From the NCBI GenBank assembly GCA_038087875.1, contig CM075988.1:3038001-3102000 (forward strand): a stretch of DNA of 64,000 bases, read 5' to 3'. This document shows, in pieces, positions 7,214 through 59,105 of the stretch (positions are counted from its first letter, which is position 1; each line of letters opens with the position of its first letter). Position numbers and translations under genes: made by a program. This stretch comes from Malacoraja senta (lineage: Eukaryota). Below the pieces are notes generated by a model. It had not been told where the DNA came from. It saw only the letters and a program-made list of their open reading frames with translations, and ran no database searches.

Positions 7214-7408
7214 GGCCGGCAGAGGGCGGTGTGGAGCTCCTCCGGCCGGCAGTGGGCGGTGTGGAGCTCCTCCGGCCGGCAGTGGGCGGTGTGGAGCTCC
7301 TCCGGCCGGCAGAGGGCGGTGTGGAGCTCCTCCGGCCGGCAGAGGGCGGTGTGGAGCTCCTCCGGCCGGCAGTGGGCGGTGTGGAGCTCCTCCGGCCGGC
7401 AGGGGGCG
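7214..7408. repeat. 30-bp GC-rich tandem repeat, 6 full copies plus a partial
   Basis: Unit GGCCGGCAG(A/T)GGGCGGTGTGGAGCTCCTCC starts at 7214, 7244, 7274, 7304, 7334, 7364; partial at 7394. Confidence 0.97.
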
Positions 7409-7470
7409 CGCTGTCTGCAGCGGCCGGCGCGGAGTGCGGAGCGGGGAAGGCGGGCGCCGGCAGGTGAGGG

Positions 7471-7668
7471 ATGGCTGAGTGCGTGAAGGACAACGCGGCG
7501 GAGCCCGAGCTCAAGAAGCACAAAACCAACGGCAGCGGGGATGGCGACGGCGACGGCGACGACGGAGCGGCGGAGGCGCCGCGGAGCCGGTTCAGCCTGG
7601 GCAGCTTCCGGCTGGAGAAGATCCTCCGCGGGAGCGCGCGGGACAAGACGGTGTTCGTGCACGGCAAG
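7471..7668 (+). CDS. DCPS: m7GpppX diphosphatase (scavenger decapping enzyme), coding exon 1
   Basis: ATG at 7471 gives 66 codons ending FSLGSFRLEKILRGSARDKTVFVHGK. This matches the vertebrate DcpS N-terminal domain as recalled (human ...[24 protein letters not shown]). Phase-0 donor AAG|GTGGGC at 7669. Lies in a CpG island. Confidence 0.93.
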
Positions 7669-7726
7669 GTGGGCGTGGGCGCGGGCACGGCGGGCGCGGC
7701 CTTGTGGGGGCGGGCGGTGGATAAGC

Positions 7727-9165: not shown

Positions 9166-9167
9166 AT

Positions 9168-9297
9168 AGTTTAGTTTAGATATACAGCGCGGGAACAGGC
9201 ACTTCGGCCCACCGAGTCTGCACCGACCAGCGATCCCTGCACATTAACATTATCCTACACACACAACAGGGACAATTTACACACACACCAAGCCAAT
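9168..9297 (-). mobile_element. V-SINE 3' fragment
   Basis: TAGTTTAGTTTAGATATACAGCGCGGGAACAGGC... is the same family as 5898-6197. A possible 5' part lies at about 12255-12310. Confidence 0.75.
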
Positions 9298-9504
9298 AAG
9301 CGAGTTCGGTATTCTGAAAAACGCAAGGAATCATGGGATTTGTCAAAGGTCATTCGCGATAAAGAAAAAGTGAATGGCTGGCTGGCTGTATAAACGCTGG
9401 CTGTATAAACTGTATAAATTCTTATCTTTATTCATAATTTATGTGTAAAAATATATTTAATCTGAGGAACGGGGGTGCCAGGTAGCGGGCAAGCGGGGTG
9501 TAAA

Positions 9505-12182: not shown

Positions 12183-12312
12183 GTGTAAAAGCGAGAGAGG
12201 GGGCAGATGCGAGTGGGAGACAGGGGGAGAGTGCTGCGCGCAAACAGACTCGTGCCTCATCAGCAGCCAGAATCGAACCCGGGTCCCCGGCACCGCAAGC
12301 GCTGCCAAACCC

Positions 12313-15300: not shown

Positions 15301-16315
15301 ACTGATTTCTGACCAAATGTCCGTATGCTAGAATTGTTCGCGGCAGTGAGAAAGCATCCGTGGTTAGGGTGTAAACGCTCTTGGGAACTGGGAGGAACGA
15401 CCGATAACTCGGCGCCGGAGTCAGTAAGATATTGCATACCCGAAAGGCGGTTGATGAGAAAAAGACGGTGGCTAGTTTGGCCACGGGCAGCAGTCGCCTC
15501 TACTGCCAGGCCTCGTTGTTTTCCCGGGTGTTGATGTTTGTAGAAAGAGCAAGGAGGTTGACACGACCAGGCCGCTGCACCAAATTTGTGGTGTTTCCAG
15601 CAAACGCGTTGAGCATCGCTTCGGCCCCGTCCCCGACCCCTACGGTTTGCGTTAAACCTGAAACGAGGATGGCGCTGTTGCACTGACAAAGCCTGGACTT
15701 GCGCAGTGAGCGCTGCAATTTGCTGTTCGAACTGCATTTTCCGGCTTTACTGTCGCTGCATTTACCACCGTCACCTACAGCGCATTGGTTGACTCCATGA
15801 TAATGTCGGCCTGTTTTGCGAGCTTGATTATGGTAGCCGATTGAAACGTACCTATCAGGTGCCCCTGCACCTGAGTAAGCATGCACTGGAGAAACTTCTG
15901 CTTCCAGACATCACCGTCAATGTCTTCATCTCCCATCAGCCTGCGCCATCTCCGCAGCATTTGTGATGGCCTCATATCGCTGAGATTATAATCTCCCAGC
16001 AGCTCCGAAATGTGGGCTTGTTTCGAGGGCTGCGTTCGCTCCAAGACAGCGGATTTAAGTTTGTCCTTAGGGTTAAGGAGCACGTCCTCGACTTCACATG
16101 CGATCTACTCTGGAAGACGAGCTGCTAGGCACCCACATTTTTTTTTGTTGGCTCTTGACATTGAGGGAGTGAAATCGAGCTTCTAGTATCGAAATCCACA
16201 CTCTTGCGTTGGTTGTAAAAAGCATTGGGACGTCGAGTTTTACTTTGTCGACGGACACCGCGTCACTTCTATCGTCGCATATCGTTGTAAGTAAATTGAA
16301 GGTTGCGTGTAGCCA

Positions 16316-16328: not shown

Positions 16329-16566
16329 TGTAGAATCCACTAAATCTCACTACCGAAAGTAAAGGACAAGCGACACCAAGCTTTGCCAAACACCCTGTGC
16401 CTTGTTTAATAAAAATCTCCTCAAACTCCTCTTGTACAGATATGCCCGTTATACCCTCTGACCTCGGTGTTTGAATCTCTGCTTTCGACCGTCATGTGAC
16501 GCAGCTCATTGCTGGGCAACGGGGACAAGCTGCACCTAAAAACCACGTGGGCATGAAGTCGCCACA
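16329..16566 (-). repeat. Gypsy 5' LTR (238 bp, TG...CA)
   Basis: Starts TGTGGCG and ends CTACA on the - strand, followed 2 nt later by the PBS TGGTGACC. Confidence 0.85.
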
Positions 16567-16569
16567 GTC

Positions 16570-16727
16570 GTCTGGGGAGAGGGGGAGAAGGTGTCTGGGT
16601 ATAGGGGGTATCTGGGGAGAGGGTGGGTTGACTGGGAAGAGGGGGGGAAGATGTCATCTGGGGAGAGGGGGAGAAGATGTCTGGGGAGAGGGGTGTGTCT
16701 GGGGAGGGGGGATATGTCTGGGGAGAA
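16570..16727 (+). repeat. Second G-rich repeat block
   Basis: Degenerate TCTGGGGAGAGGGG units resembling 7727-9165. Confidence 0.8.
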
Positions 16728-17152
16728 CTAGTGCCGCACCTTCTCCCCACCCTCTCAATGTCTACCCGTCTCACTCCACTATATCTCCAGTGTCTCTGTC
16801 CCCTCACTGCCCCAGGTCAGGTCAGGTCATTCCAACCACTGGCACTTCAGCTGCAACGGTACAGTCATGCTCCTCGAGTGACAGCAAGCAAACTGCTGGA
16901 GTGACACAGCAGGTGTGGAGGGATCGGAGAGACTCGGCTGCAGCCTCCTCAGAGCTGGGACATCCAGCTTTTTGTGCAGAGCCCAAGATCCCAGCAGGTG
17001 TAGTTCCTCATATCTCCCACTGCAGAAAACCGGTTGTAAAACCGATCAATCAATGGGGAAAAGGGGGTGAAGGGCGAGAGCTTCAAAGATGCAGTAACAA
17101 AAATTATTCCTCACACGATTTTCAAACAAAGGTATTTTTGATAGCTACAAGT

Positions 17153-17390
17153 TTAGTTTAGAGATACAGCGTGGAAATATGCCCTTCGGCCCATCAAGTC
17201 CACATCGACCAGTGATCCCCGCACCTTAACACTATCCTACACACACTAGGGACAATATAACATTTGTACCAAGACAATTAACCTACAAAGTTTGGAGTGT
17301 GGGAGGAAACCGAAGATCTCAGAGAAAACTCACATAGGTCACGGGGTGAACTGGCGCTATAAGGCAGCAATTCTACCGTTGCGCTGCCCA
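17153..17390 (-). mobile_element. V-SINE (internally deleted)
   Basis: Same family as 5898-6197. Confidence 0.75.
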
Positions 17391-18264
17391 AGCTTAGTTT
17401 TGTGACTGCAAACTAAAAATATGCAAGGCTATATGTTACGATGTTTACATTACCAACCGCCTCTAAACCCCGGTACAGTCGCCAGCGGTGAGCATAGCGA
17501 CTGTGGACCTGGGGCTGGTGAAAACACAGTCAGCGCCTGTCGGGCAAAAGACAAAGTTTAAATCCCAACGGAGGGAGTCCCAGGCAATGAAGAAGCTCCA
17601 GGGCTAGATACTGCTTTAGAGCGTATTGCCCAAATAGAAAGCCTTTTACACAGGCTGTTGGAGCAAAGTTCACTCAGGGAGGAGTGTTCTGAAAGCCAAG
17701 CTGCTGGAAACAGCTCAAACAGCTCCTGGTACAGCGCTAGATACTGCTTTCGAGCGTATTGCCCAAATAGAAGCCTTTTTTATAGGTTGTTGGAGCAAAA
17801 GTTCACTCAGGAAGGAGTGTACTGTAATCCAAGCTGCAGGAGCAGCTTAACAGCACCTGGCTCAGGGCTGATGGAATGCACCCTCAGGAATGAGGAGCGT
17901 GCTACGGGTCATGAGATTTCAGACCCCGACTCTGACGGTGAGGCTGTACAAGGCGATGAAAGGCAGCTGCCAGATGTTCCACCCCTGGTAGTAGGATTCG
18001 CTGCCCCGTCAGGGTCAGGAGAGCCATTAGGAAGAACTGGCCTCCTTAATAAATTACTTGGTTTACCATTAGCTGGAACAGCATGAAATGGATGAGACTG
18101 CAAGAGTATCTGGAATCAGTTGCAGAGAATATTAAAGCTGCTGGGTTCTGGAATAACTGCTTTTACCAGAATAGCAGGTAACAACCAAAAAATGACGAAG
18201 TTGCATCAGCAAGCACTGGGGTTGCTATGCAGCACCCACTTCGAGAAGTGCTATACGGTCTACT

Positions 18265-20068
18265 ATGAATCCGAAATTCGCAACACTCTGCAAACCAAGT
18301 AATATACAAATTACCCAACTTACTCTTTGGAGAGATCTCGGGAGACGTATTAAAGAGTTGGAAGATGAAGCGAAAACAGGATTGATGAAGACATCAATGG
18401 TTGTGAAGTCTGTAAAGAGGAAGTATCCTTTCAGACGTTATATGGATCCTGGACCAAGTCGCTCATCAACGCAGGGACGTAGTTGGCGACCTGCAGCGGG
18501 AGCAAGAACCAGTGGGTGTGCTTCCGGGAGAACCCAGGAATCTCAGGGTACTCAAATGACTCAAGAGGTAGGTGGACCTGGTTCTCATGGGAACATACTA
18601 ACTGGATTAAGTCCAAAAGTTGGAGGCAGGTTACATTTCTTCTATAATAATTGGAAGAAAATTACTTCAGATGTGGTAATCCTGAATAATATACAAGGAT
18701 TTCGAATTGAATTCAATCCAAATTATGATTTGCCTGTTCAGCATGTTCCTAGCCGAACTCTGCACTTTGTACAAAAAGAAGTGATGGAGGTTCAGGTTGC
18801 AATTGAAACCCTATATAAAAAAGGGGTTATTGAAAAATCAGTCTACCAAAGTCACCAATTTGTGTCAAATATATTCCCTCGATCAAAAAAGGATGGAGGA
18901 TGTAGGATTCTTGTAGATTTGATAAATCTGAATCCTTTTGTGCAATTTAGACATTTTAAAATGGAAACATTTGTGACTGCCAAACAGCTTATTTCAGAAG
19001 CATGTAATATGGCAACTATAGACTTGAAAGATGCATATTATTCAGTGTCTGTTCATTCAGAAGATAGGAAGTATCTTAAATTTAAATGGATGAACCAGTT
19101 GTGGCAGTTCAAAGCTCTGCCTAATGGGTTAATATCTGCACCCAGAATATTCACAAAATTGTTAAAACCAATTCTGGGCTTACTGAGTAGCCAGGGGCAT
19201 GTACTAATGGCATATTTGGATGATGTCTTGATTATAGGAAAGACAAAACAGTCAACAGAAGTATCTGTTGCAGTTGTGAAATCAACTTTTGAAAATTTGG
19301 GGTTTCTAATTCATCCACAGAAATCTAGGTTAACACCATGTACCTCTATTAATTATTTGGGGTTCACAATTGATTCAGTCCAAATGAATATTACTTTGCC
19401 CAGGGAAAAAGGTGGATTTGATTAAAGATTGCAGTAATCTCCTAAACGAGCAAAAACCTTCAATTAGACAGGTGGCTCGTGTACTGGGAAAATTAGTAGC
19501 AGCATTCCCAGCAGTCCAATTCGGACCATTACATTATCAACAGCTGCAGAGACTTAAAGAACAGGCACCGAGAATGCATGTTGGTCATTTTGATAGAACA
19601 AATGCTGTTTCTGATCTGCAGTGGTGGATTCTACATGTCTCAAGCAGTTCCAGCAAAGTGCTGATTGAACAACCTTCCATGATATTACAAACTGATGCCA
19701 GTGCACCAGGATGGGGTGCAACTGACTTAACATCTAGCTGACGAGGCAGATGGAATCAGGAAGAGTCATTGTTACTGCAGACATGGGGAATTAACTATTT
19801 GGAGCTTCTAGGATGTTTCTATGTTTCTTATTGTTCTAACACAACTAATAAGCATGTTCAAGTTCAAATTGATAACACAACAGTAGTTGTTTATATTAAT
19901 GATATGGGTGGAATTAAGTCGGTGTCTTGTGACATAATGGTTAATCAACTTTGGGCTTGGTGTATTGAAAAGAACATTTGGATTTCAGCTATCTATCTAC
20001 CAGGTAGAATGAACGATAGCAGACACCAGGTCACGAAAAGTTCCATGATAATAAAGAATGGATGTTGA
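18265..20068 (+). pseudogene. DIRS RT / RNase H (frameshifted)
   Basis: ORFs 18265-19425, 19412-19741 and 19769-20068 carry consecutive RT and RNase H motifs. Confidence 0.88.
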
Positions 20069-20442
20069 ATGAAGAGGTATTCAATGATATAGTCATCAGA
20101 TTTGGAATGACCGACATCGACTTGAATCATCAGCTATCGAGATATGTCTCATGGAAACCAGATCCAGGAGCAGTGGCGATTGATGCTTTCTCGCTACATT
20201 GGGGTGGTATGTTTTCATATATATTTCCACCTTTCTGCCTCATAAGCCAATGTTTGCTTAAAATCAGGCAAGATGCTGCTTCAAGGGTATTGGTAGTACC
20301 AGATTGGCCTACACAGCCATGGTATCCGTTGATATTAGAATTAACAACACAAATGTTGATGAAAGTCCCAAAAAAGAGTAATTTATTGCTGCACCCTGTA
20401 CAGGGGAACAACATCCATTATATGATCGTTTGGATTTGTTGA
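20062..20442 (+). pseudogene. DIRS DNA N6-adenine methyltransferase-like domain remnant
   Basis: DIDL..., DAF..W, FPPF and PDWPTQPW motifs typical of DIRS1 pol C-termini. Confidence 0.75.
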
Positions 20443-20443
20443 T

Positions 20444-21434
20444 TTGCAGGTTTTAAGAATGCCTTTTCTGGGACGAGGACTGTCTGAGCATACTGTGGAC
20501 ATGCTTACGGCAGTCTGGAGGAAGAGCACTCAAAAACAGTACCTTTCTTATATTAAGAAATGGGAAGAGTTCTGGGTACAAAAGAATGCAATAAAGTACT
20601 GCAGATATTTCAAATGTTTAGAATTTCTGTCAAAACTTTATTATGATGAAGGTCTGAGTTGTAGTGCAATTAATTCAGCCAGAAGTGCATTGTCCTCATA
20701 CTTGGTTCTGGATTCAGAAAGAAACTCAATTGGGTCACACCAAATTGTTTCCAGACTAATGAAAGGAATCTTTAATTCCAAACCACCGAAACCTAGGTAC
20801 GTGACAATCTGGGATGTAAGTGTGGTACTGAAACTACTTCGTGATGGTCATCAAGTGTGTCTTTACCTTTGGTCAAGCTCAGTATGAAAGTATTCATGTT
20901 TATGGCATGAGTGACAGCACAACGAGTGCAAACACTTGGAGAATTACAAATAGACAGTATGGAAGTAACTGAAGACAAGGTTACATTCTATATCTATGAC
21001 CCACTAAAGCAAATTAGGCCAGGTGTGACAGGATTTAAAATTATGCTGGCAGCATATCCAAATGATCCATGTCTCTGTATGAAGACATATTTATTACAAT
21101 ACATTGAGGTCACAAAGAATTTGAGAATACGGAAACTGGGTTTTTGATCACACACAAGAAACCACACAAGAGAGTTTCAATACAGACTATTTCCAGATGG
21201 ATAAAAGAAGTCTTAACAGCTGCTGGTATTAACACTTATGTTTTTACGTCTCACTCGACTAGGGCAGCAGAAATGTCGGCGGCCAGGGCAAAAGACGGCC
21301 CCGTCGACCATATCCTCGCAGCCGCCGGGTGGTCCACTGAGTTGCTGTTTCAACATTTTTACCATCGGCCTATTGTTAATGCGGGGTTGTTTGCAGAAAC
21401 TATTTTAAGTTCTGTGCAAATTCCTCTGGTTTAA
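20444..21434 (+). pseudogene. DIRS tyrosine recombinase (frameshifted)
   Basis: SARSALS, PPKPRY..WDV..VL, AQRVQTL, TISRWIK, HSTRAA, AAGWS..F..FY. Confidence 0.88.
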
Positions 21435-21614
21435 AGGGGATCTGATTCATTTCATTATTGAAATGAATTACTGCATTTGTGGTACAAATGTTATTATGAA
21501 TGCATGATTGATTATTCTCGTCAATCTATGCAGTGAGAAGCCGGGATTGATCCACGGCATGAAATCACAAAGCTTTAAAATCTTCACGTAGTCACTCACG
21601 TGACTCCGAAGTAA

Positions 21615-21926
21615 AATAGTAAGATTAAACGAGAACTTACCTAAGTTTGAAGTTTGATCTTTATTTTATGAGGAGTTACGTAGGTGATTAAGTGCTCACC
21701 ACGACCCTACCCTCTATCATAAAGGTCAGATGGAAGTTCTTGTCTTACTCGTTTTAGTATGAGACTATATTACTTCGGTTGTTGTTTTTTGTGATTTCAC
21801 ACCGCTGCTTTGAAGATTGACGCGCAGGCGCACTGGCGGGGTTCTTCATGTAATCACCTACGTAACTCCTCATAAAATAAAGATCAAACTTCAAACTTAG
21901 GTAAGTTCTCGTTTAATCTTACTATT
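21615..21926. repeat. Perfect 76-bp inverted repeat (21615-21690 / 21851-21926)
   Basis: The arms are exact reverse complements with a 160-bp spacer. Confidence 0.95.
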
Positions 21927-23744: not shown

Positions 23745-25010
23745 ATTGATTTTATTGATTATATTAGCCAAGTATGATAACATAACAAGTATGTAAATCA
23801 TATGAGGAATTTGATTTTGCCATACAGTCATACCAAAAATGCAACAAAACACGCAACCATATAAACATTTAACATAAACATCCATCACAGAGGCGCCTCC
23901 ACATTCCCCACTGTGATGGAAGGCAATGAAGTCTTATCTTCTTTCCTCCTTTTTCTCCCGCGGCCGGACAGTTGAACCATCCGCAGTCGGGGCAAATGAC
24001 GCTCCTGCAGACGGCGATCAAAGCTCCTGTGTTGGGGCGATTGAAGCTCCCGCGATCGGGGCGGTCGAGGCTCCTGCGGTTGGAGCTCCCGAAGCTGGTC
24101 CCTAACCAGGGACCATAAGCTCCGCGAAGTTAAAGTCCGCGGGCTCCCGCAGTTGGAGCTTCCGAGATTGATCCCTGGCAAAGGGACCGCCAGCTCCAAG
24201 ATGTTAAATCCGCAGGCTTCCGTGGTTGGAGCTCACAAAGTCGATCCCCAGCAAGAGGCCGCCAACTCCACGATGTGAGGAAGAACATTATAGCCATAGA
24301 GGGAGTGCAGAGAAGGTTCACCAGACTGATTCCTGGGATGTCAGGACTTTCATATGAAGAAAGACTGGATAGACTTGTCTTATACTCGCTAGAATTTAGG
24401 AGATTGAGAGGGGATCTTATAGAAACGTACAAAATTCTTATGGGGTTGGACAGGCTAGATGCAGGAAGATTGTTCCCGATGTTGGGGAAGTCCAGGACAA
24501 GGGGTCACAGCTTAAGGATAAGGGGGAAATCCTTTAAGACCGAGATGAGGAAAAACTTTTTCACACAGAGAGTGGTGAATCTCTGGAACTCTCTGCCACA
24601 GAGGGTAGTTGAGGCCAGTTCATTGGCTATATTTAAGAGGGAGTTAGATGTGGCCCTTGTGGCTAAGGGGATCAGGGGTATGGAGAGAAGGCAGGTACGG
24701 GATACTGAGTTGGATGATCAGCCATGATCATATTGAATGGCGGTGCAGGCTCGAAGGGCCGAATGGCCTACTCCTGCACCTATTTTCTATGTATCTATGT
24801 TAGTCCACAGTGCGGACGGAGATACAATACGGATAAAGTCGCATCTCCGTCGAGGAAAGAGATTAAAACAGTTTACCCCACCTCCCCCCCCCCCCCAATT
24901 TATACAAAGCTAAAGAAACACTAAAACATACATTTAACAACAGACTAAAAACAACAAAGAAGGAAAAAGACGAGACAGACCGTTGGCGAGGCATCCATTG
25001 TTCGGCACCA
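23745..25010 (-). mobile_element. Composite VNTR-containing non-autonomous retroposon (copy A), interrupted by CR1
   Basis: Shares head, hairpins and GC-rich repeats with 37819-38590 and 59335-60222. Confidence 0.65.
24277..24798 (+). mobile_element. Young CR1 3' fragment
   Basis: IIAIEGVQRRFTRLIPGMSGLSYEERL... Nearly identical to 44522-45054. Confidence 0.9.
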
Positions 25011-32593: not shown

Positions 32594-34205
32594 CAGTACC
32601 CTCTATAATGTTTGGGACAAAGACCCATCATTAATTTATTTGCCTCTGCACTCCACAATTTGATATTTGTAATAGAAAAAATCACATGTGGTCAAAGGCC
32701 ATTTTTATATATTTTGATTTCATCATGTAGAAATTACAGCAGTGTTTATATGTCGTCCCCCCATTTCAGGGCAACATAATGTTTGGGACATGGCTTTCCA
32801 TGTGTTTGTAATTGCTCAGGTGTGTAATACTTGCCTCCTTAATGCAGGTACAAGAGAGCTCTCAGCACCGAGTCTTTCCTCCAGTCCTTCCATCACCTTT
32901 GGAAACTTTTTTTATTGCTGTTTATCAACATGAGGACCAAAGTTGTGCCAATGAAAGAAGCCATTATGAGACTGAGAAACAAGAATAAAACTGTTGGAGA
33001 CATCATCCAAACCTTAGGCTCACCAAAATCAACTGTTTCGAACATCATTAAGAAGAAAGAGAGCACTGGTGAGCTTACTATTCGCAAAGAGACTGGCAGG
33101 CCAAGGAAGACCTCCACAGCTGATGATAGAAGAATTCTATCTATAATGAAGAAAAATCCCCGAACACCTGTCTGACAGGTCAGAAACCCTCTTCAGAAAT
33201 CAGGTGTGGATTTGTCAATAACCACTGTCCGCAGAAGACTTCATGAACAGAAATACAAAGGCTACCACTGCTCAGATGCAAAGATGCAAACCACTGCTCA
33301 GCTGCAAAAATAGGATGGCCGGGTTACAGTTTGCCAACTAGTAATTAAAAGAGCAACCACAGTTTTGGAAAAAGGCCTTGTGGACAGATGAGATGAAGAT
33401 TAACTTATATCAGAGTGATGGCAAGAGCAAAGTATGGAGGAGACAAGGAACTGCCCAAGATCCAAAGCATACCACCTCATCTGTGAAACACACTGGTGAG
33501 GTTGTTATGGCCTGGGCATGTATGGCTGCTGAATGTACTGGCTCACTTATCTTCATTGATGATACAACTGCTGATGGTAGTAGCATAATGAATTCTGAAG
33601 TGTATAGACACATTCTATCTGCTCAAGTTCAAACAAATGCCTAAAAACTCATTGGCCAGCGGTTCATTCTACAGCAAGACAATGATCCTAAACATACTGC
33701 TGAAACAACAAAGGAGTTTTGCAAAACTAAAAAATTGTAAATTCTTGAGTGGCCAAGTCAATCACTCGATCTGAACCCAATTGAGCATGCCTTTTATATG
33801 CTGAAGAGAAAACTGAAGGGGCCTACCCCCCAAAGCAAGCATAGGCTAAAGCTGCCTGCAATACAGTCCTGGCAGAGCATCACCAGAGAAGACACCCAGC
33901 AATTGGTGATGTCCATGAATCGCAGACATGAAGCAGTCATTGCATGCAAAGGATATGCAACAAAATACTAAACATGACTACTTTCATTTACATTACATTG
34001 CTGTGTCCCAAACCTTATGGTGTGCTGAAATGGGGGGGGGGGGGAACTGTATAAACACAGCTGTAATTTCTACATGGTGAAACCAAAATGTATAAAAATG
34101 GCCTTTGTTAAAATCTGACAATGTGCACTTTAACCACATGTAATTTTATTCTATTACAAATCTTAAATTGTTGAGTCTTTGTCCCAAACATTATGGAGGG
34201 CACTG
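32594..34205 (+). mobile_element. Tc1 transposon copy 1 (defective)
   Basis: TIRs CAGTACCCTCTATAATGTTTGGGACAAAGAC / ...GGAGGGCACTG. Transposase remnants GRPRKT, WTDE, QQDNDPKH, DLNPIEH. Stops and frameshifts. Confidence 0.93.
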
Positions 34206-34732
34206 TATATATATATATATATAAAGACACACACACACACACAGACGCAAACAAACAATAATAGTGCAAAAAGACAAAACCAATGAAAGGGTCTCGACCC
34301 AAAACGTCACCCGTTCCGTTGCTACCTGTCCCGCTGAGTTACTCCAGCACTTTGCATCTAACCCCAAGTCTATGTTGTTCAGAGCTTATTTGGAGCTTGT
34401 GTTTAATAGCCTGACGGCTATAGGGAGTCCATGGGTGAATACAAACAATAATGTCCAAAAAATATGCTGGAAGTTGTCTGGAAACATGCATTTTCCAGCA
34501 GGAGTTGCAAGAGTGGGTAAAGCGGTCAGTCAGGAGATCCGAGAATTTAGAAAAGTGCAGCACAGGAACAGTCCTTTCAGCCCACAATGTCGATGCTGAA
34601 CATGATGCAAAGTTAAAGTAATCGCCTCTGCCTGCATGTGATCAATAAACCTTCAATCCCTGCATATGATGAACTATTTCTCCTTCCTAGCCCAGAGGCT
34701 CAGAGATCAGTGGTTGCACATAGTCCATACAT

Positions 34733-44012: not shown

Positions 44013-44521
44013 CAGTTGTGATGGCGTCCAAAAAATCGGTGAGGAACTCAGGAGAAAACTATTTATACAGATCAGATGTAGAATACATTCTAGGTCTACA
44101 AAAATGGTGGAAGACTGCAGTTCCTTCTTAAAAAAAAAAGAATACCTTCTAGTTCAGTTTAGTTTATTGTAGGTTTACCGAGATACAGCAAAAAGCTTTT
44201 GTTACGTGCTATCCAGTTAGCAGAAAGATAATACATGACAGGGCTCTCGCTTAACTTTTTTCCCCTGTTGCCAGCCGGGCAACCTTGACAGCATTTTAGG
44301 TTGCCAAATGACAGTTTAGGTGGTCATTTAAGATGGCTTGCATGACACGTGCGATAATGTGCTTGGACGAAGTGCGTAGTTACCAGTCGGAATTATACTC
44401 AATGAAGCATTCACATGTTATTTCTGCTTCAAAAAAAGTCACAAACTAAACATATTCACCAATCAAGACATGATATATCCCACAATGACATGCAGCAAAA
44501 TTATAAGTCAGTATCTCAACT

Positions 44522-45054
44522 CCAAATCTGAGGAAGGACATTATAGCCATAGAAGGAGTGCAGAGAAGGTTCACCAGACTGATTCCTGGGATGTCAGGAC
44601 TTTCATATGAAGAAAGACTGGATAGACTTGGCTTATACTCGCTAGAATTTAGGAGATTGAGAGGGGATCTTATAGAAACGTACAAAATTCTTGTGGGGTT
44701 GGACAGGCTAGATGCCGGAAGATTGTTCCCGATGTTGGGGAAGTCCAGGACAAGGGGTCACAGCTTAAGGATAAGGGGGAAATCCTTTAAGACCGAGATG
44801 AGGAAAAACTTTTTCACACAGAGAGTGGTGAATCTCTGGAACTCTCTGCTACAGAGGGTAGTTGAGGCCAGTTCATTGGCTATATTTAAGAGGGAGTTAG
44901 ATGTGGCCCTTGTGGCTAAAGGGATCAGGGGGTATGGAGAGAAGGCAGGTACGGGATACTGAGTTGGATGATCAGCCATGATCATATTGAATGGCGGTGC
45001 AGGCTCGAAGGGCCGAATGGCCTACTCCTGCACCTATTTTCTATGTATCTATGT
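44522..45054 (+). mobile_element. Young CR1 3' fragment nested in the DNA transposon
   Basis: Near-identical to 24277-24798. Confidence 0.9.
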
Positions 45055-46432: not shown

Positions 46433-46863
46433 CGACGTTTCGTGTCGGCGGCTGTCGTGCGGGGCCAAGATACTAGGTGCGGGGTGAGGAAGGGTCGGAG
46501 CGAATGATGGGTCCCGCACAGTGGCAACAGCGGCCGCGAACAGCAGCTCCATCTCCTCCTCCCGCCTTGATAAGGGCCTCTGCTTGTAAACCCGTTAACG
46601 GCGCTTTCAAACAAACTCTCCCGCACTACGAGGCCGGGAGGAGGGAGGGAGGGAGGGAGGGAGGGGGAGGCCTCGGAGTGCGGGTGAGTTTGTTTGAAAG
46701 CGCCGTTAGCGGGTTTACAAGCAGAGGCCCTTATCAGGGCGGGCGGAGGAGGAGGAGATGGACCCGCTGCTGCCGTTGTGCGGGGCCCGTCATTCGCTCC
46801 GACCCTTCCTCATCCCGCATCTAGTATCTTTGCCCCGCACAGCCGCCGCCGACACGAAACGTC
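46433..46863. repeat. Long imperfect inverted repeat (~200-bp arms)
   Basis: GACGTTTCGTGTCGGCGGC... pairs with ...GCCGCCGACACGAAACGTC, with a purine (GGGA)n spacer at about 46636-46668. Confidence 0.9.
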
Positions 46864-47214
46864 ACGTTCCTTTTCTCCAGAGATGCTGCCTGACCCGCGG
46901 AGTTACTCCAGTTTTTTGTGTCTATCTTCGGTACAAACCAGTATCTGGTTGCCAAGCCGGGCAAAATGACTCAGTGTTTAGGTTGCCCGGCGGCGCTTTC
47001 AGTGGTCAGTGGCACCCGGGCAACCGCTAATTTCGAGCCCTGCATGATTACAACTGAGCCATTTACAGTGTATAGATACATGATAAGGGAATAATGTTTA
47101 GTACAAGGTGAAGTCAGCAAAGTCCAATCAAGGATATTGAAGTACTTAAACCACAAAGGAGAATTGTGTATTAAGGGGAAGCTATTTAACAGGTAAGATT
47201 TAGAGAATTATGTT
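46751..47214 (+). repeat. 464-bp direct repeat, copy 1
   Basis: Ungapped match to 53520-53983 (offset 6769) with about 6 substitutions. Confidence 0.95.
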
Positions 47215-47618
47215 TTTTTTAATTTTTTTATTTTTAATTTTTTTATTTATTAGAAGTACATTACATTACAACCACATACATTAGTACTCGTCACTAATGT
47301 CTTCTTACAATTAATGTACTCCATTTGTTTTTTACACTAGTAAAAGGAAAGGATAAGATTGAAAGAAAGAAGAAAGTGAAGGAAAAAGTGAGAGTGTAGA
47401 AAATGTGACAACAAAAAAGAACGAAGACCCTATAAGAACAAAATTAAAAACAAAAGAAAAAGTCTTAAGAAATAGACCCTAGAAAAGAAGGAGAGAGAGA
47501 AAGAGGAAAAAGAGAGAAACAAATATTTTTTATGAGCATTACGCAAATGGGACATACCAACTCTTCAACTATCATCCCCCATTACCTGACCTCAATTTTT
47601 TTAAGGTACCTTTGCACC

Positions 47619-50600
47619 CTATATTTGTAATAATTCTATAAATGCAGACCACGTCAGGTGGAAGTGATCTGGTTTACCTGCCAGGAGGAGGAGTCTTATC
47701 TCTTCTAGGTGTAATGTTTCGAACATATTTGAAATCCACACAGTTGGTGTTGGAGCCTTCTTCCAAAATTTTAGGATTAGCTTTTTTCCAGTTATTAACC
47801 CATAGTCTATTAGTTTCTTTTGAAACACATTGAGTTCTGGACCATCTTCCGTTATTACGAAGATAATCCATTCTGCTTTGGGTATCAGTTTTATTTTAAA
47901 TAATTTTGTAAAGATTTCGAAAATTTCATTCCAAACTTTTTGAATTTTTGAACAGAAAACAAATGGGTGCGCTATAGTAGCTTCTTGGGATTGACATTTA
48001 TCACAAATAGATGATACATTTGGGAAAATGTTATGGATTTTAGTTTTGGAATAATATAATCTATGTAAAATTTTTAATTGTATTAAAGTGTGTCTTACAT
48101 TAATCGAACATTTATACACGTTTAATAAGTGTTCATTCCAACTTTCCTTTGAAATTTTAATAGCTAACTCTTGTTCCCAGTCTCTTCTGATACCCTCCGT
48201 AAATGGTATTTCTACATTTAAGATAATATACAAATATGATATTAAGTTTGATGATTCAGCTTTTATCTGCATTGCCTCATCCAATACATCTGCTGGGTTA
48301 TTATAATGATCTTTTGTATATTTTTTCAAATAGTCGCATATTTGAAAATATTTAAAATATTGATTATTTCCGAGTTTATATTTTATTTGTAATTGTTGAA
48401 ATGAAAGTAATTTTCCAGTTTCATACAAGTCACCGAACGTTTGAATTCCTAGTCTATCCCAATGTGTAAAAGCTTTATCTATAATAGAGGGATTAAACAA
48501 AGGGTTATTAGCTATGGGTAATAAAAGTGATAAATTTCTTAATTTTAAATTTTGTTTTATTTGTTTCCAAATTCGGATTGTGCTATGAATAATTGGGTTC
48601 TTATTATAATTTATATTATTCAGTTTCATTGGAGAGAGGAGGATCGCTCCAATGTTTCCAGAGGAGCAATCCTCTTTCTCCATTACAATCCAGTCCACTT
48701 GCTGGGCGGAGTTATCCATCAGTTGAATCATATTTTTAATATTTACTGACCAATAATAATACATAAAATTAGGTAGTGCTAAACCCCCTAATACTTTAGG
48801 TTTATTCAGGTGAGTTTTTTGTATTCTATGTGATTTATAGTCCCATATAAAATTAGTGATATCTGAGTCGAGTTTAAAAAAAAACTTCTTTGGTAAGTAT
48901 ATAGGAATCGATTGAAATAGGTATAAAATTTGTGGTAGAAAGATCATTTTTATTGCATTTATTCGGCATATTAAAGACATCGGGAGCGTTTTCCAGAATT
49001 TAATTAGTGTGTTTAATTTATTAAGTAGGGGATCAAAATTTGCCTTAAACATACCTTGATATGTTCTAGTAATTTCGATTCCCAAGTATTTAAATTTTTC
49101 TGTAGCTATTTAAAAGGGGAATTTTAAAAGATGTGTTGAATCTTTCGGTTTTATTGACATAATTTCACTTTTATTCCAATTTATTCTATATCCAGAAAAA
49201 GATCCAAAGTCTTCAATTAAATTTAATATATTTGGTATAGTGATTTGAGGTTTTGTAATGTACAGTAATATATCATCCGCGTATAAAGATATTTTATTAT
49301 ATGAATCTTTAGTATTATATCCATGGATATCAGGGTGTATTCTAATTTTTTCTGCTAGCGGTTCAATAATGAGAGCAAACAGCTGTGGTGATAATGAGCA
49401 TCCTTGTCTATTTCCCCTTGATAGTTGGAATTTTGAGGATAATATGTTAATAGTTAATATTCTAGCTGTAGGTTTATTATATAGTAATTTGATCCATAGA
49501 ATAAAATTCTCTCCCAGTTGAAATTTTTGTAATACTTTATCCATATAATTCCCTTCTACTTGGTCAAATAGTTTTTCAGCATCCAGCGAAATAATTGATA
49601 ATTCTTGATCTTCAGATTTGTGTGAGTGCATTATGTTGAGTAAACGTCTCATATTGTTAGATGAGTATCTCTTAGGGATAAACCCCGTCTGATCTGGGTT
49701 TATTAATTTACTAATGTATTTACTTAATCTAGCTAATGTTTTCGCTAATATTTTTTGATCTGTGTTTAACAATGCTATAGCTCTATATGAACCCGGTTCT
49801 TCTAAATCTTTGTCTTTCTTAAGTATCAGTATAATCGTTGATTCCGCTAATGTATCAGGTAGTATTTGTTTTTTAAAAGCATATTGGTACATTTTTTGTA
49901 ATCTTGGTATTATTTTATTATAAAAGCTTTTATAAAATTCATTAGAAAATCCATCAGGACCTGGTGTTTTTCCATTCTTTAGTGAGTTTATTGTATCTTC
50001 TAATTCCTTAATTGAAATTTGTGCACCCAATTCCTCTTGTTCCTTCAACTCTAACTTTGGAAGATTACAATTATCCAAAAACGTTGCGATATTATTGGAA
50101 TCAATTGTCGTTTTAGATGTATACAAATTCTCATAAAATTGCGCAAATCTTTTATTAATATCCTTCGGTGTTGTTAATAATTCCCCTTTATCTGATTTAA
50201 TCTTTGGGATAGTATGTTCCTTTTCTCGTTTTTTTAGCTGGCGAGATAAAAGTTTATGCGGTTTATCCCCAAATTCAAAGTGCTCTTGTTTTGTAATTTG
50301 AAAAAAGTCTTATAAGTTTGGCAGATAATAATTTATTTAATTTAAATTTCAAAATTATTATTTTATTATGTTTATCTATTGATGGATCTTTAGCATTATC
50401 TATATCCATTTGTCTAATAAGTTCTTCTAACTGTCTTTGTTCATTCTTATTCTTTTTATTTTGAAAAGCTTGATATGAAATTATAATACCCCTAATGTAT
50501 GCTTTAAAAGATTCCCATAATACAGTAGACGATATATCTGGAGTATCATTTATTTGAAAAAAGGCATCCATTTGTTCTTTTAAATATATACTCGCTTGTG

Positions 50601-51398
50601 GATCTTTTAGAATTTGAGAATTAAATCTCCAAAACGATTTATTCTTAAACATTCCTTCCAGTTTTAAAAAGAAAGTTAGTGGAGAATGGTCTGAAATCGA
50701 ATTTGTATGGTATGTTGGGTTAAATGTTTGAGGGATTAATTTTGTATCCAGCATGAAGTAATCTATACGTGAGTATGTCTTCTGTACCATTGAATAAAAC
50801 GAGTATTCCCTGCCAGTTGGATTAACAATTCTCCAAACATCTGCTATATTAGTATTGTTTATATAAGTATTGAGAAGTTCCCCGGTTTTCGATTTCATAT
50901 TCCCTCTCTGTTTTTGGCTTGATCTAAGTATGGATCTAAAACACAGTTAAAGTCTCCTCCTATTATAACATTTTGATAGTTAAACTCTGCAATTATGTTG
51001 AAAATTTTATTGAAAAAGTGGGGGTTGTCAAAGTTAGGGGCATATATATTTACCAAGGTAAGTGGAGTATCATGAATTTCTCCATTAACTATTAAGTATC
51101 TCCCTTCTATATCTGTTATGATATTCTTTGCTTTAAATGGTATACCTTTTCTTATAATGATTGACGTGCCTCTAGATTTCGAAGTGAATGAAGAATGGTA
51201 TGTTTGACCTATCCATTTCGCCCTCAACCTAGCTTGATCCTGAGATTTTAAGTGTGTTTCTTGTAAGAAGATAATGTCAGAGTTGTACAGTTTCAACTGA
51301 GCTAGTATCTTACCCCTTTTAATAGGTTCGTTAATACCTCTTATATTCCAGCTACAAAATGAGATTCCTCCTAGGTTCTTTTGTTTAGTATCATGCAT
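47619..51398 (-). pseudogene. L1 ORF2p (EN-RT-Cys), split into four ORFs
   Basis: ORFs 50895-51398, 50275-50898, 49110-50126 and 47619-49085 carry consecutive domains. Confidence 0.9.
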
Positions 51399-52239
51399 TT
51401 TGAATAATTATAGTACCTTTAAATCTTGTGGTGCATCCATATCCCAGGTCTTTGGGTATTGGGGGAACTTTTGAATTTTTGAGTTTTGTTGGTATATCCA
51501 TTTTACGCTTATCACTAAACACAAAACACAAACATGTGAGTTTATGTGATAATAATTTTAAAAAAACTAAAAAAGTGAAAATACAGTGTCTATTATAGTC
51601 GGCACTGTAGCGAGTGTCCCAACTGTAGGTGGGAAAAAACCTTGTTTCGACTTCCATTGTGATGTTAAACAAATAGCTCCGCTCTCTTGGTTGATCATAA
51701 CATATTAAAATATTAAAACGGGGCCTCACATTCAGATATATAATACAATTTTACCCTATATATTTCATTATAACATCATATTTATATCGCAATTTTAGCT
51801 ACTAATTAGTAAACCGATACTTTTGACTTCAATAAGAATCAACTGTTGGTTGAAGGGGTTAACGAGACGTGCCCCTGGACCTAAGCCAGGTGCTCGTTTC
51901 TCATCCCCTCCTCCCACTTATAGATAAGGTTTCAATTTATTAAAAATTCATATTAGTATGTTAGTTCGTTATTTTTTATTTTTATTTTTGTTAGTATTCT
52001 AATCTAACATGAATAACTTATTAAGTTATTAATAGGATAAATTCTTACAATTGGTTTTAATATTATAATCTAATAAACAAGTAAATGCTTCTGGTATATA
52101 CCATTCCCGTCTGTTCAGCTGTTTACTCATTTTGAACAGAAAGTGTCCTTGATTCAACATTCCAAAGATAACAGTCTAGCTATCCCCAGACAAAGCATTG
52201 CTTAGAATGGTTCAGATCTGCCAAACCCCCATTTGATTT

Positions 52240-53342
52240 CTATTTTTCAACGATAGTTTCGGCATATTTGAATGCGTCTTCAGGCTTAACAAATGACTTT
52301 ACAGAACCTTTGAAGGAAATACGCATTTTCGCTGGATAAAAAACTCCATATCTGATCCCTTCTTTCCCTCTTAAAAGATCCTTAACCTTCTCGAATTTGT
52401 TTCTTTTTTGCACAATTTCATACGGGTAGTCCCTGAATATCTTGATAGTGTCATTGTCCAGCCGCAGTTGCACACCGTGTTTGATTTTGCTCATAACATC
52501 TTCCAGTTCTAAAATATCCCGAAATTTCACAATAATATGTCGTGGATGAGTTTTTCCCGCACCAGATCTTTGTTTAAATCTTGGGACACGATGAGCCACT
52601 TCGATTTTCGGTTCTTTGGAAAGATTAAGCAGTTGTTTAAGCAAGCCCATGGCAATCTCACGCACATCCTCCCCCTCGCTCCCTCTGAGACTCCAAGAAT
52701 TCTCAAATTCTGACGTCTAGAGCGAGCTTCCAGGTCCAGGCATTTTTCTGAGACTTTTCCCAGTTGAATCACCATCTGTAGTGAAGTTTGTTCATTTTCT
52801 TGCCTCATTTGCTCATGTTCTTGCCTCATTTTCGCCATGTCTTCAACCACTCGAGCCGTGTTTTTCTCCAATTCCGTAATTGTGCGCATACTTGCAGCTA
52901 CTGTTTCAAGCACAGCCGTGAACCTGTCCGTAGTAGTTTCATCCATCTTGTCCATTCTCTCCGATTGTCCATCTTTCACATCCTCAATTCGTTTATTCAT
53001 AATGTCCAGTGAATCAATCACCTTCTGATTGCCAGCATCCATAGCCTTCTGATTACCAGCATTTAAATCCTTCAACATCTTTTCCATTTTTTCCATCATA
53101 TTTCCCATATTTTCCTTCATATTTTCCATCATAATTTTATTTTCATCCAAAATCTCATCTTTCATATTTTTCACTGATTTCTTCAAGTCATCAAACTCTT
53201 TCTTAGCTCTTGTATCCATTTCTGCAGCCACTTCAGAGACTTCAGAGACTTCAGAGGTAACTTCTCCTTCAGACTTATTCTGGTCTCTCAGCAGCTTTTT
53301 CACTAATCTCTGAGGGCTCTCAGCTGGAGACAGTTTACTCAA
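52240..53342 (-). pseudogene. L1 ORF1p (one frameshift)
   Basis: Overlapping ORFs 52527-53342 and 52240-52665. Confidence 0.85.
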
Positions 53343-53519
53343 TTAAAGGGCTTTAAACCACCGTTTAAAACATCGCGCTTACTGATGACGTCATCCAACC
53401 GGCGACCAGAAGCTCCGGTAAGTTTTTTAAATCCAATCCCGATTTATGGACCCGTTTTACACGATAAATCGTGAAATTTTTCGGGAGAGGAGCTAGGTGC
53501 ACGTCTGTTAGTCCAACAT

Positions 53520-53983
53520 GGAGGAGATGGACCCGCTGCTGCCGTTGTGCGGGACCCGTCATTCGCTCCGACCCTTCCTCATCCCGCATCTAGTATCTTT
53601 GCCCCGCACAGCCGCCGCCGACACGAAACGTCACGTTCCTTTTCTCCAGAGATGCTGCCTGACCCGCGGAGTTACTCCAGTTTTTTGTGTCTATCTTCGG
53701 TACAAACCAGTATCTGGTTGCCAAGCCGGGCAAAATGACTCAGTGTTTAGGTTGCCCGGCGGCGCTTTCAGTGGTCAGTGGCACCCAGGCAACCGCTAAT
53801 TTTGAGCCCTGCATGATTATAACTGAGCCATTTATAGTGTATAGATACATGATAAGGGAATAATGTTTAGTACAAGGTGAAGTCAGCAAAGTCCAATCAA
53901 GGATATTGAAGTACTTAAACCACAAAGGAGAATTGTGTATTAAGGGGAAGCTATTTAACAGGTAAGGTTTAGAGAATTATGTT
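53520..53983 (+). repeat. 464-bp direct repeat, copy 2
   Basis: Matches copy 1; abuts the L1 5' end. Confidence 0.95.
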
Positions 53984-54337
53984 GATAGGATTAAGTGAAT
54001 TATGGCAGAACCTACTGACCGAACAGCGCAGGAAATTCTGTTCTGATCTATGGAGATATTGGTTCCATGTTTAGGAATGCCTCTTTTAAATCCTTCCCCT
54101 GGTTTCAAACTGTAATCTTGCTTCTTCTACTATACCCTCCAGGCATATAATTATTCAATATAAATATGCGCATCTAATTTTGACTAAGCTTGTAAAGATT
54201 TATTTGCTTCACCTTCAGCAGCTAAGCTGTCAAAAGGTGCTAAAATCTGGAATTTCCTCTCTAAATTTTGTACCTCAGGGCATTTTTTTCTGCCAATGTA
54301 ATCTGAAACCAATTTATATGAAGCCTCTGGTTATATA

Positions 54338-55948
54338 CAGAGGCTTCCATAATGTTTGGGACAAAGACCCATCACTTATTTATTTGCCTCTGTACTCCAC
54401 AATTTGAGATTTGTAATAGAAAAAATCACATGTGGTTAAAGTGCACATTGTCAGATTTTATTAAAGGCCATTTTTATACGACATGGTTTCACCATGTAGA
54501 AATTACAGCTGTGTTTATACATGGTACCCCCATTTCAGGGCACCATAATATTTGGGACACATGGCTTCACAGGTCTTTGTAATTGCTCAGGTGTGTTTAA
54601 TGCCTCCTTAATGCAGGTATAAGAGAGCTCTCAGCATCTAGTCTTTCCTCCAGTCTTTCCATCACCTTTGGAAACTTTTATTGCTCTTTATCAACATGAG
54701 GACCAAAGTTGCCAATGAAAGTCAAAGAAGCTATTTTGAGACCGAGAAACAAGAATAAAACTGTTACAGACATCAGCCAAACCTTAGGCTAACCAAAATC
54801 AACAGTTTGGAACATCATTAAGAAGAAAGAGAGCACTAGTGAGCTTACTAATCGCAAAGGGACTGGCAGGCCAAGGAAGACCTCCACTGAAGATGACAGA
54901 GTCTTTCTCTCTATAATAAAGAAAAAATCCCCAAACACGTGTCCAACAGATCAGAAACACTCTTCAGGAGTCAGGTGTGGATTTGTCAATGACCTCATGG
55001 TCAAGACTTCATGAACAGAAATACAGAGGCTACACTGCAAGATGCAAACCACTGGTTAGCCGCAAAAATAGAATGGCCAGGTTACAGTTTGCCAAGAAGT
55101 ACTTAAAGAGCAACCACAGTCCTGGAAAAAGGTCTTGTGGACAGATGAGACGAAGATTAACATCAGAGTGATGGCAAGAGCAAAGTATGGAGGAGAGAAG
55201 GAGCTGCCCAAGATCCAAAGCATACCACCTCATCTGTGAAACACGGTGGTGGGGGTATTATGGCTTGTGCATGTATGGCTGCTGAAGGTACTGGCTCACT
55301 TATCTTCATTGATGATATAACTGCTGATGGTAGTAGAATAATGAATTCTGAAGTGTATAGACCCATCCTATCTGCTCATGTTCAAACATAATGCCTCAAA
55401 ACTCATTAGCTGGCAGCTCATTAAACAGTAAAACAATGATCCCAAACATACTGCTAAAGCAACAAAGCAGTTTTTCAAAGCTTGAGTGGCCAAGTCAATC
55501 ACCCGATCTGAACCCAATTGTGCATGCCATTTATATGCTGATGAGAAAACTGAAGGGGACTAGCCCCCAAAACAAGCATAAGCTAAAGATGGCTGCAATA
55601 CAGGCCTGGCAGAGCATTACCAGAGAAGACACCCAGCAACTGGTGATGTCCATGAATCGCAGACTTCAAGCAGTCATTGCATGCAAAGCATATGCAACAA
55701 ACTACTTTCATTTACATCACATTGCTGTGTCCCAAACATTATGGTGCCCTGAAATGGGGGGACTATGTATAAACACTGCTGTAATTTCTACATGGTGAAA
55801 CCTAAATGTATAAAAATGACCTTTATTAAAATCCGACAATGTGCACTTTAACCACGTGATTTCTTTCTATTATAAATCTCAAATTGTGGAGTACAGAGGC
55901 AAATGAATAAATGACGGGTCTTTGTCCCAAACATTATGGAGTGCACTG
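54338..55948 (+). mobile_element. Tc1 transposon copy 2 (defective)
   Basis: Same TIRs and transposase remnants as 32594-34205. Confidence 0.92.
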
Positions 55949-56097
55949 TCCACTAATACCTACAAGATTTGGTGACAAATTTTGTTAAATAATACTCCTG
56001 TGAAACATCTTGAGGGGTTTTGCTTCGTTTAAAGTGGAATATTGATGGAAGCTGGTTTTGTTGTTGTTTGACAAAGGATCCACTTTGCTCGGTTTTT

Positions 56098-57582: not shown

Positions 57583-57612
57583 TATAGAGTTAATGTAGAA
57601 ATCATTGATATA

Positions 57613-59105
57613 CAGTACCCTCCATAATGGTTGGGACAAAGACCCATGATTTATTTATTTGCCTCTACTCCACAAATTGAGATTTGTAATAGAAAAAAAT
57701 CACATGTGGTTAAAGTGTACATTGTCAGATATTATTAAAGGCCATTTTTATACATTCTGGCTTCACCATGTAGAAATTACAGCTGCATTTATACATAGTC
57801 CCCCTATTTTAGGGCACCATAATGTTTGGGAGACATGGCTTCACAGGCATTTGTATTTGCTCAGGTATGTTTAATTGCCTCCTTCATGCAGGTCTATGAG
57901 AGCTCTCAGCACCTAGACTTTCCTCCAGTCTTTCCATCACCTTTGGAAACTTTTATTGCATTCATCAACATGAGGACCAAAGTTGTGCCGATGAAAGTCA
58001 AAGAAGCCGTTATGAGACTGAAAAACAAGAATAAAACTGTTCGAGACATCGGCCACACATGCTTACCAAAATCAACTGTTTTGAACATCGTTAAGAAGAA
58101 AGAGAGCACTGGTGAGCTTACTAATCGCAAAGGGATTGGCAGGCCAAGGAAGACCTCCACAGCTGATGACAGAAGAATTCTCTCTATAGTAAAGAAAAAT
58201 GCCCAAACACCTGTCCGACAGATCAGAAACACACTCAAGAGTCAGGTGTGAATTTGTCAATGATCACTGTCCGCAGAAGACCTCATGACAGAAATGCAGA
58301 GGCTATACAGCAAGATGCAAACCTCTGGTTAGCCGCAAAAATAGGATGGCCAGGTTACGGTTTGCCAAGAAATACTTAAGAGAACAACCACAGTTCTGGA
58401 AAAAGGCCTTGTGGACAGTTGAGATGAAGATGAACTTATATCAGAGTGATGGCAAGAGCAAAGTATTGGGGAGAGAAGGAACTGCCCAAGATCCAAAGCA
58501 TACCACCTCATCTGTGAAACATGGTGGTGGGGGAGTTATGGCCTGGGCATGTATGACTGTTAAAGGTACTGGCTCATTTATCTTCATTGAAGATACAATT
58601 GCTGATGGTAGTAGCAATATGAATTCTGAAGTGTATAGACACATCCTATCGGCTCAAGTTCAAATAAATGCCTCAAAACTCCTTGGCTGGCAGTTCATTC
58701 TACAGCAAGACAGTGATCCAAAACATACAGCTCAGGCAACAAAGGAGTTTTTCAAAGCTAAAAAATGGTAAATTCTTGAATGGCCAAGTCAATCACCCGA
58801 TCTGAACCCAATTGAGCATGCCTGAAGATATGCTGAAGAGAAAACTGAAGGGGATTGGCCTCCAAAACAAGCATAAGCTAAAGATGGCTGCAATACAGGC
58901 CTGGCAGAGCATCACCAAAGAAGACACCCAGCAACTGGTTATGTCCATGAATCGCAGACTTCAAGCAGTCATTGCATGCAAAAGATATGCAAAAAAATAC
59001 TAAACCTGACTACTTTCATTTACATGACACAAATCTCAAATTGTGGAGTACAGAGGCAAGTAAATAAATTATGGGTCTTTGTCCCAAACATTATGGAGGG
59101 CACTG
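57613..59105 (+). mobile_element. Tc1 transposon copy 3 (defective, deletion in right TIR)
   Basis: TA-CAGTACCCTCCATAAT... to ...GGAGGGCACTG. Motifs GRPRKT, KHGGGGVMAW, QQDSDPKH, SPDLNPIEH. Confidence 0.92.

Follow-up and report, generated by a model that had tools for sequence, protein, structure and literature searches.

The locus described here raises the question of how an L1 retrotransposon came to lie between two nearly identical 464-bp copies of host DNA. It occupies positions 46751-53983 of a 64,000-nucleotide stretch of Malacoraja senta DNA (GenBank assembly GCA_038087875.1, contig CM075988.1, positions 3,038,001 to 3,102,000, forward strand), which is referred to below as the window and whose coordinates are used throughout. 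An initial annotation, made from the sequence alone, had read the repeat as a giant target-site duplication (TSD). We give a probability of about three in four to the reading that this is an L1 insertion with a long TSD, the far end of which lies in the longest hairpin of the window. The insertion was probably inherited, and the reading makes it a new example, in a cartilaginous fish, of a known type of outcome and not a new mechanism. The repeat, its flush junctions with the insert, the L1 identity of the insert and the continuity of each copy with its own flank are the observed parts of this reading.

The 464-bp repeat and the insert between its copies

Features of the locus, in order of position:
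46434-46863, no strand: inverted repeat of host DNA; arms at about 46434-46635 and 46669-46863 on either side of a G-rich spacer of 33 bp
46751-47214, plus strand: copy 1 of the duplicated target, on the 3′ side of the L1; continuous with the left flank; two probably derived changes (46785, 47198)
47215-47251, minus strand: A-rich tail of the L1; AATAAA (47246-47251), then two copies of a 15-nt A-rich unit
47252-47618, minus strand: L1 3′ untranslated region (UTR)
47619-51398, minus strand: L1 open reading frame (ORF) 2; APE-type endonuclease, reverse transcriptase (RT) and C-terminal region; 3,780-bp span
51399-52239, minus strand: inter-ORF spacer, 841 bp
52240-53219, minus strand: L1 ORF1; coiled-coil-like N-terminal half, then RRM-CTD
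53220-53519, minus strand: short CpG-rich 5′ UTR; 13 CpG in 300 nt vs 4.8 per 300 elsewhere
53520-53983, plus strand: copy 2 of the duplicated target, on the 5′ side of the L1; continuous with the right flank; four probably derived changes within 49 bp
53980-53985, plus strand: putative first-strand nick site TGTT/GA, as read on the empty site; a degenerate TTTT/AA-type site
53984-54330, plus strand: right flank, single-copy; connected with the block end in three sequenced organisms (A, C and E, below)

Each copy is 464 bp long, and a gap-free alignment of the two shows mismatches at 6 of 464 positions (1.29%), all of them transitions, which bears out the earlier count of about six substitutions in an ungapped pair. 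Given as copy 1/copy 2, the differences are G/A at 46785/53554 and 47018/53787, C/T at 47034/53803, 47051/53820 and 47066/53835, and A/G at 47198/53967. Beyond both borders of the block, identity between the copies drops sharply to background. Copy 1 directly adjoins the start of the T-rich tail at 47215 and copy 2 starts at the base right after the last L1 base (53519), so that the direct repeat is flush with both ends of the insert, as had been claimed for the A-rich tail and the 5′ end; the final TT of the block can be assigned equally well to the L1 tail. The length and identity of the repeat exclude a chance origin. In a ranking of window self-matches outside the satellite at 7.4-9.3 kb, this pair is the most identical of the five that reach at least 150 bp and at least 93% identity, the other four being dispersed repeat copies or a 30-bp tandem array. 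A canonical TSD of 7-20 bp is absent: there is no short repeat at either L1 junction, and the repeat that is found, at 464 bp, is about 30 times the usual TSD length. The block itself is a mosaic of host repeats, half a hairpin included, as had been described, with a Penelope repeat, a DNA-transposon end and a LINE tail as putative further parts. Positions 46751-46863 form one arm, the right one, of an inverted repeat; 13 further places in the window match 46850-46947, and two match 47043-47136.

The insert is a decayed minus-strand L1 of 6,305 bp in which both ORFs are broken. Three of the seven frames scanned matched Pfam families: the endonuclease PF03372 (E 1.3e-13), the RT PF00078 (E 1.2e-32) and zf-RVT, PF13966 (E 1.3e-4, below the cut-off). 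The RT piece matched human L1 ORF2p with an E-value of about 1e-77 compared with about 1e-20 for R2, and the C-terminal piece of ORF2 matched L1 ORF2p over 465 residues (E about 3e-26). The second piece of ORF1 matched human ORF1p (E 7e-08), while PF02994 scored E 0.016 on ORF1, below the cut-off. The best named protein match was from the skate Leucoraja erinacea, at 79% identity, which points to a probable skate host. ORF2 shifts frame near 50900-50950 and again near 50300 and has an in-frame stop at 49110-49112, and ORF1 shifts frame once, near 52680-52716; the true start of ORF1 may lie further upstream, in a frame that is open to 53342. The element combines an APE endonuclease and an RT nearest to L1 ORF2p with an ORF1 that has a coiled coil and an L1-type RRM-CTD, and it has a 3′ polyadenylation signal and an A-rich tail and is without long terminal repeats (LTRs), as expected for the L1 clade. 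No second copy of this L1 was found within the 64-kb window, pattern and protein scans for family copies found none in metagenome, viral or prokaryote contigs, and a search for longer ORF1 relatives found none. The L1 tail at 47215-47245 consists of the two 15-nt units and is not pure poly(A), possibly as a result of priming slippage.

The length and identity of the repeat resemble those of a young LTR pair, and the block could in principle belong to the element, either as an LTR or as flanking DNA carried by 5′ or 3′ transduction. The ends of LTRs follow a TG..CA rule, and this repeat ends GG..TT. The interior is an L1 with APE and RT domains, ORF1p and ORF2p homology and a poly(A)-type tail, and gag-pol and integrase were not found in it; copy 1 is not followed by a second A-tail, and each copy is native to its own flank. 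The initial annotation had likewise held that the repeat is not an LTR. Both readings are hardly tenable and were rejected on the anatomy of the insert and its flanks.

The six differences could be polarised in part. The hairpin partner base of 46785 is A, so copy 1 is derived at that position, and it is probably derived at 47198 as well, since 53967 is absent among the differences listed for organisms A and C. At 47051 and 47066, two paralogues elsewhere in the window share the C of copy 1, which makes copy 2 the derived one at 53820 and 53835; its changes at 53787 and 53803 are CpG decay, probably derived in copy 2 too. Since each copy carries derived changes, the two have evolved independently. 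The LTR-style clock that had been read from the substitutions is a weak one, with a 95% interval of 0.47-2.8% around the 1.29%, two of the six changes at CpG, and clustering. Changes fell at 2 of 48 CpG bases compared with 4 of 416 other bases, and four of the six lie within 49 bp (53787-53835), for which P is about 0.045 for any four of six and 0.004 for four of four. These four copy-2 changes, all C>T or G>A and probably derived, could be due to conversion or to a single event. Deamination acting on a single-stranded intermediate was weighed as a cause and not adopted, two of the changes being ordinary CpG changes and the P of about 0.045 being post hoc. The divergence between the copies amounts to between a quarter and a third of that measured against A and C, although the compared regions differ, and the decay of the L1 fits it, with one in-frame stop compared with 1.2-1.7 expected at 0.65%, a weak test that 0.24% and 1.4% pass too. 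With the epaulette shark pedigree rate of 7e-10 per generation (PMC10587355), an absolute age of 3-20 million generations would follow, which was rejected as too old-looking; relative ages were kept.

Host origin of the duplicated block

The inverted repeat at 46434-46863 is the longest close-spaced inverted repeat of the window, of which it covers 0.7%, and its spacer matches a G-quadruplex pattern (46636-46667). The far end of the duplication, 46750|46751, falls inside the right arm, within a (GGA)4 run. The symmetry of the arms runs on across 46750|46751, indicating that copy 1 is native to the left flank. In organisms A, C and E, the right arm of this 430-bp hairpin (arms of about 200 bp) is present at high copy (bin 53403-53640), suggesting a MITE-like (miniature inverted-repeat transposable element) family.

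Contigs from 4 of 24 sequencing runs were aligned, X1 from organism A, X6 from organism C, and X19 and X20 from organism E, about 12% of X19 being left unread. The alignment target was 47215-54330, which includes one copy of the block and has the border 46750|46751 outside it. In organisms A and C, one contig each runs from 53853 to 54330 across 53983|53984, with 25 of 478 and 18 of 479 substitutions, respectively, and more than 100 letters on each side of the junction. Only this one contig aligned at the block end in either organism, with no second adding depth. The L1 tail bin had depths of 6.4 and 5.2 in A and C compared with 766,202 in X19 and 280,487 in X20, and the ORF1 bins 0-556 compared with 51,000-284,000 in X19, while A and C do hold older relatives of the L1 in ORF2. 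As A and C nearly lack the L1 tail and ORF1, the L1 subfamily postdates the split. For the empty site, the right junction is thus bridged by one contig in both of the runs from organisms other than E, and the evidence at the left junction is the hairpin symmetry alone. Read most simply, these sequences would mean that the target was single-copy in the common ancestor and that the insertion came later, on the branch leading to organism E.

The same contigs bear on the possibility that the block was tandemly duplicated first and the L1 came later, exactly at the junction, or that other repair duplicated the block beside an existing L1. Hairpins and microsatellite runs, such as those that contain the far end, can give rise to duplications with no L1 involved, and pruning of contigs could hide a second copy in the relatives. 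Such an order of events calls for an insertion at one position in about 900 without a short TSD of its own, and none is visible at either junction; together with the single contig at the block end in A and C, this makes it very doubtful.

Several observations weigh against the long-TSD reading. The single copy in A and C is suggestive only, since contig pruning could hide a second one. No contig across either L1 junction was among the matches listed, which skip 47215-47251, and in X19, the best-matching run, no copy-1 branch aligned at the block end. The link between the hairpin and the far end is a weak one, a single case noticed post hoc. Germline TSDs are short in the published data: for de novo Alus in sperm, 8-18 nt in all 51 of 51 (PMC12633430), mostly 10-20 bp in 1,019 genomes (PMC12350158) and 10-31 bp in equid retrocopies (PMC10249811).

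The contig results would also suit an assembly artefact, in which merged haplotypes or contig ends had doubled the block. X19 shows one block end only, in a lone contig (511 nt, depth 29.7) that covers 53924-53974 and has no differences in 470 from copy 2 plus flank, and junction-spanning sequence was missing from the matches listed. A plain merge of alleles with and without the L1, by structural reasoning, cannot give both the block-to-tail and the 5′-to-block junction. There is no N gap between 7048 and 64000, the sole N run of the window being 6848-7047, and the locus is gap-free. The six differences, with derived states on both copies, are more than the 0.9 expected at a diversity of 0.002 (shark, PMC10587355). 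Logan contigs undergo simplification with SPAdes-like heuristics (bioRxiv 2024.07.30.605881), which suggests that short branches leading to high-copy repeats may be lost by pruning; a short branch into the very high-copy tail could have dropped out of X19 in this way, or could lie in the unread 12% of that run. On this evidence, an artefact is quite improbable. For an old allele that had never been filled, about 6 differences from copy 2 would be expected in 470 positions, the probability of none being 0.002, or 0.11 at the lower bound, and for this reason X19 probably carries the haplotype of the window. The second sample of organism E, X20, had a flank depth of 0.23 and was uninformative on polymorphism.

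The putative first nick, the far end and the 5′ end of the L1

The 3′ junction reads TATGTT and then the tail, which places an endonuclease-type site, albeit a degenerate one, where first-strand cleavage would be expected. The first nick had been put at TATGTT/GA, and the site is as stated: only 3.9% of block positions score as high as TGTT/GA, by a crude TTTT/AA score from which the preference of this family may differ. The far end, 46750|46751, is not endonuclease-like.

The two ends also bear on an origin by unequal crossover between two separate L1 insertions of the same orientation, each on its own allele and at its own end of the block, which would leave a chimeric L1 between the blocks. 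Crossover yields exactly the observed structure, with two true L1 junctions and a repeat that is a recombination duplication. The L1 family is abundant in organism E, at depths of about 1e5-1e6 compared with about 30 for the flank (depth here is not copy number). Allelic differences would separate the copies from the outset, at least 6 in 464 having P of 0.012 at a diversity of 0.002 and of 0.12 at 0.005 under the coalescent. The event requires two segregating insertions on the same strand 464 bp apart plus the crossover, and it predicts a nick site on the 5′ side, 5-31 bp into the block. The best candidate there scores 3.5 compared with 4.5 for TGTT/GA, and no candidate within 20 bp exceeds 2.5, the score being crude and the family preference possibly different. 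We regard crossover as rather unlikely.

At its 5′ end, the L1 begins ATGTTGG. The frog-like motifs AGACGTG and TAGCTCC stand at positions 14 and 25, compared with about 30 and 40 in frog L1, so that the conserved vertebrate L1 5′ motifs are 15-16 nt nearer the end of the element than in frog L1. No GACTTCCGG-like motif was found in the first 300 nt of the L1 with up to two mismatches. Judged by other vertebrate L1s, the element probably lacks about 15-20 terminal 5′ bases. The description of the L1 as full-length was therefore slightly overstated: the element is nearly complete, but the motif spacing and the missing GACTTCCGG-type start make a complete 5′ terminus doubtful. This small probable loss matters because, in HeLa cells, very long TSDs accompany 5′-truncated insertions, while full-length insertions have TSDs of 10-17 bp (PMC2912911). 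Truncated L1 ends tend to join via annealing (PMC4245944).

We infer all of the enzymatic steps of the long-TSD insertion. From the junction sequence and established L1 biology, ORF2p would have nicked the plus strand at TATGTT/GA, and the T-rich end would have primed on the A-rich tail of the RNA. Reverse transcription would then have run nearly to the 5′ end of the RNA, stopping about 15-20 nt short, to judge from the motif spacing. The usual second cut 10-20 bp away would have gone unused, and the end of the cDNA would have been joined to the target 464 bp off, at the (GGA)n run in one arm of the 430-bp hairpin, with the intervening DNA copied on both sides. The event would then have been inherited, with both copies and the L1 decaying since.

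Two routes to the distant join can be considered. Hairpin and G-quadruplex-type DNA can stall replication forks or be cut by structure. As the far end lies in the (GGA)4 run of a hairpin whose spacer has a G-quadruplex pattern, we lean modestly towards copying coupled to replication or repair (break-induced synthesis where the DNA is prone to form structures) and away from a remote nick with subsequent unwinding and fill-in. The second-strand nick 464 bp away that the initial annotation had proposed is thus one of two routes, the published alternative being that the DNA is copied by replication from the reciprocal end. Unwinding from a remote nick has been proposed for cells deficient in nucleotide excision repair (NER) (PMC5223499), while L1-linked duplications of 1-10 kb have been read as large TSDs formed by break-induced replication (bioRxiv 2024.12.14.628481).

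A broader proposal, that this L1 family regularly makes germline TSDs which run to hundreds of bp and that extrudable hairpin repeats determine where their far end falls, is a long shot. If true, it would reveal a hidden source of small duplications, as genome surveys go no further than TSDs of 25-30 bp. As pseudo-LTRs, the long repeats would enable clean excision of the L1, and the single block end in X19 could be a re-emptied allele.

Neighbouring elements and known systems

The remainder of the window contains other repeats. At 12469-16104 on the minus strand are broken frames of an LTR retrotransposon with RT, RNase H and integrase matches. A broken element at 16475-21926, which we take to be DIRS-like, has an RT at 18196-19422 and a weak tyrosine-recombinase match at 21108-21431 (E 0.00084, below the cut-off), and these are followed by a perfect 76-bp inverted repeat (21615-21690/21851-21926). 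Another family of long interspersed nuclear elements (LINEs) is represented by a 714-codon open frame with endonuclease and RT domains (10112-12256, minus strand), with relatives at about 1.8-4.9, 28 and 35-37 kb. A 539-bp repeat occurs at 24263-24800 and 44517-45054, 20 kb apart at 98% identity, and inverted at 9503-10026 at 93%; these repeats are probably the 3′ ends of young LINEs. Three Tc1/mariner-like copies, which match one another, lie at 32600-34240, 54333-55950 and 57600-59100, with transposase matches at 57823-58768, and one of them begins about 350 bp to the right of copy 2. In the region 6848-9170, the 200-N gap is followed by the 30-bp tandem array at 7184-7453 and then, at about 7600-9170, by a G-rich satellite with units of 16-18 bp.

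Second-strand cutting and joining in L1 insertion are still unsettled. An inherited 464-bp case in a non-mammalian vertebrate suggests that the pathway which makes long TSDs, attributed in one study to peculiarities of HeLa cells (PMC2912911), also operates in normal germlines and is undercounted there. One locus establishes existence and not frequency. Its main value is that it prompts a genome-wide count of TSDs in skates, where the L1 family is abundant and young. It is also a marked substrate for detecting precise L1 excision, as the copies differ at six polarisable sites.

The statement that L1 TSDs are normally tens of bp or less holds for the usual germline size, but TSDs of more than 100 bp have precedents in HeLa, NER-deficient and DT40 cells. 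They occur in up to 10% of HeLa insertions, and the median reaches 1,495 bp in NER-deficient cells (PMC5223499); for the fish LINE ZfL2-2, a 1,228-bp TSD was found in 1 of 25 insertions (PMC2666801). Inherited long TSDs have likely been undercounted because surveys often define TSDs as 5-25 bp (PMC12016303) or 5-30 bp (PMC2912911). No inherited TSD of 464-bp scale in a cartilaginous fish was found in a literature search that had supplements and most subscription papers outside it, and the parts of PMC4859970 and PMC12458276 that were consulted contained no further L1 with a long TSD. It may well be that inherited long TSDs are already in print or in supplementary tables.

The closest counterparts are the L1 insertions with large TSDs in cultured human cells (Servant et al., PMC5223499), which share the A-tail, a first nick that is TTTT/A-like and a duplicated stretch hundreds of bp long; at 464 bp, the present one falls within their range of 5 bp-5.3 kb. 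Those insertions were engineered, de novo and mostly in NER-deficient lines, whereas the present one is in an assembled cartilaginous-fish genome and has copies that are 1.3% diverged. The 1-10 kb tandem duplications at L1 insertions in tumours and induced clones (bioRxiv 10.1101/2024.12.14.628481) are likewise read as large TSDs and attributed to break-induced replication proceeding from the reciprocal end, but they are somatic, human and larger than 464 bp. ZfL2-2 in chicken DT40 cells (PMC2666801) is similar in being a fish LINE with a long TSD, seen in a wild-type event, and differs in its L2 clade, its heterologous cell line and in not being inherited. With the fish- and frog-type L1s described by Boissinot and Sookdeo (PMC5381506), the insert shares a short 5′ UTR (at most 300 nt here), the 841-bp spacer, the 3,780-bp ORF2 span and the AGACGTG and TAGCTCC motifs near the 5′ end. 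It differs from them in the absence of the conserved terminal motif, skate L1 ends lying outside the coverage of that work.

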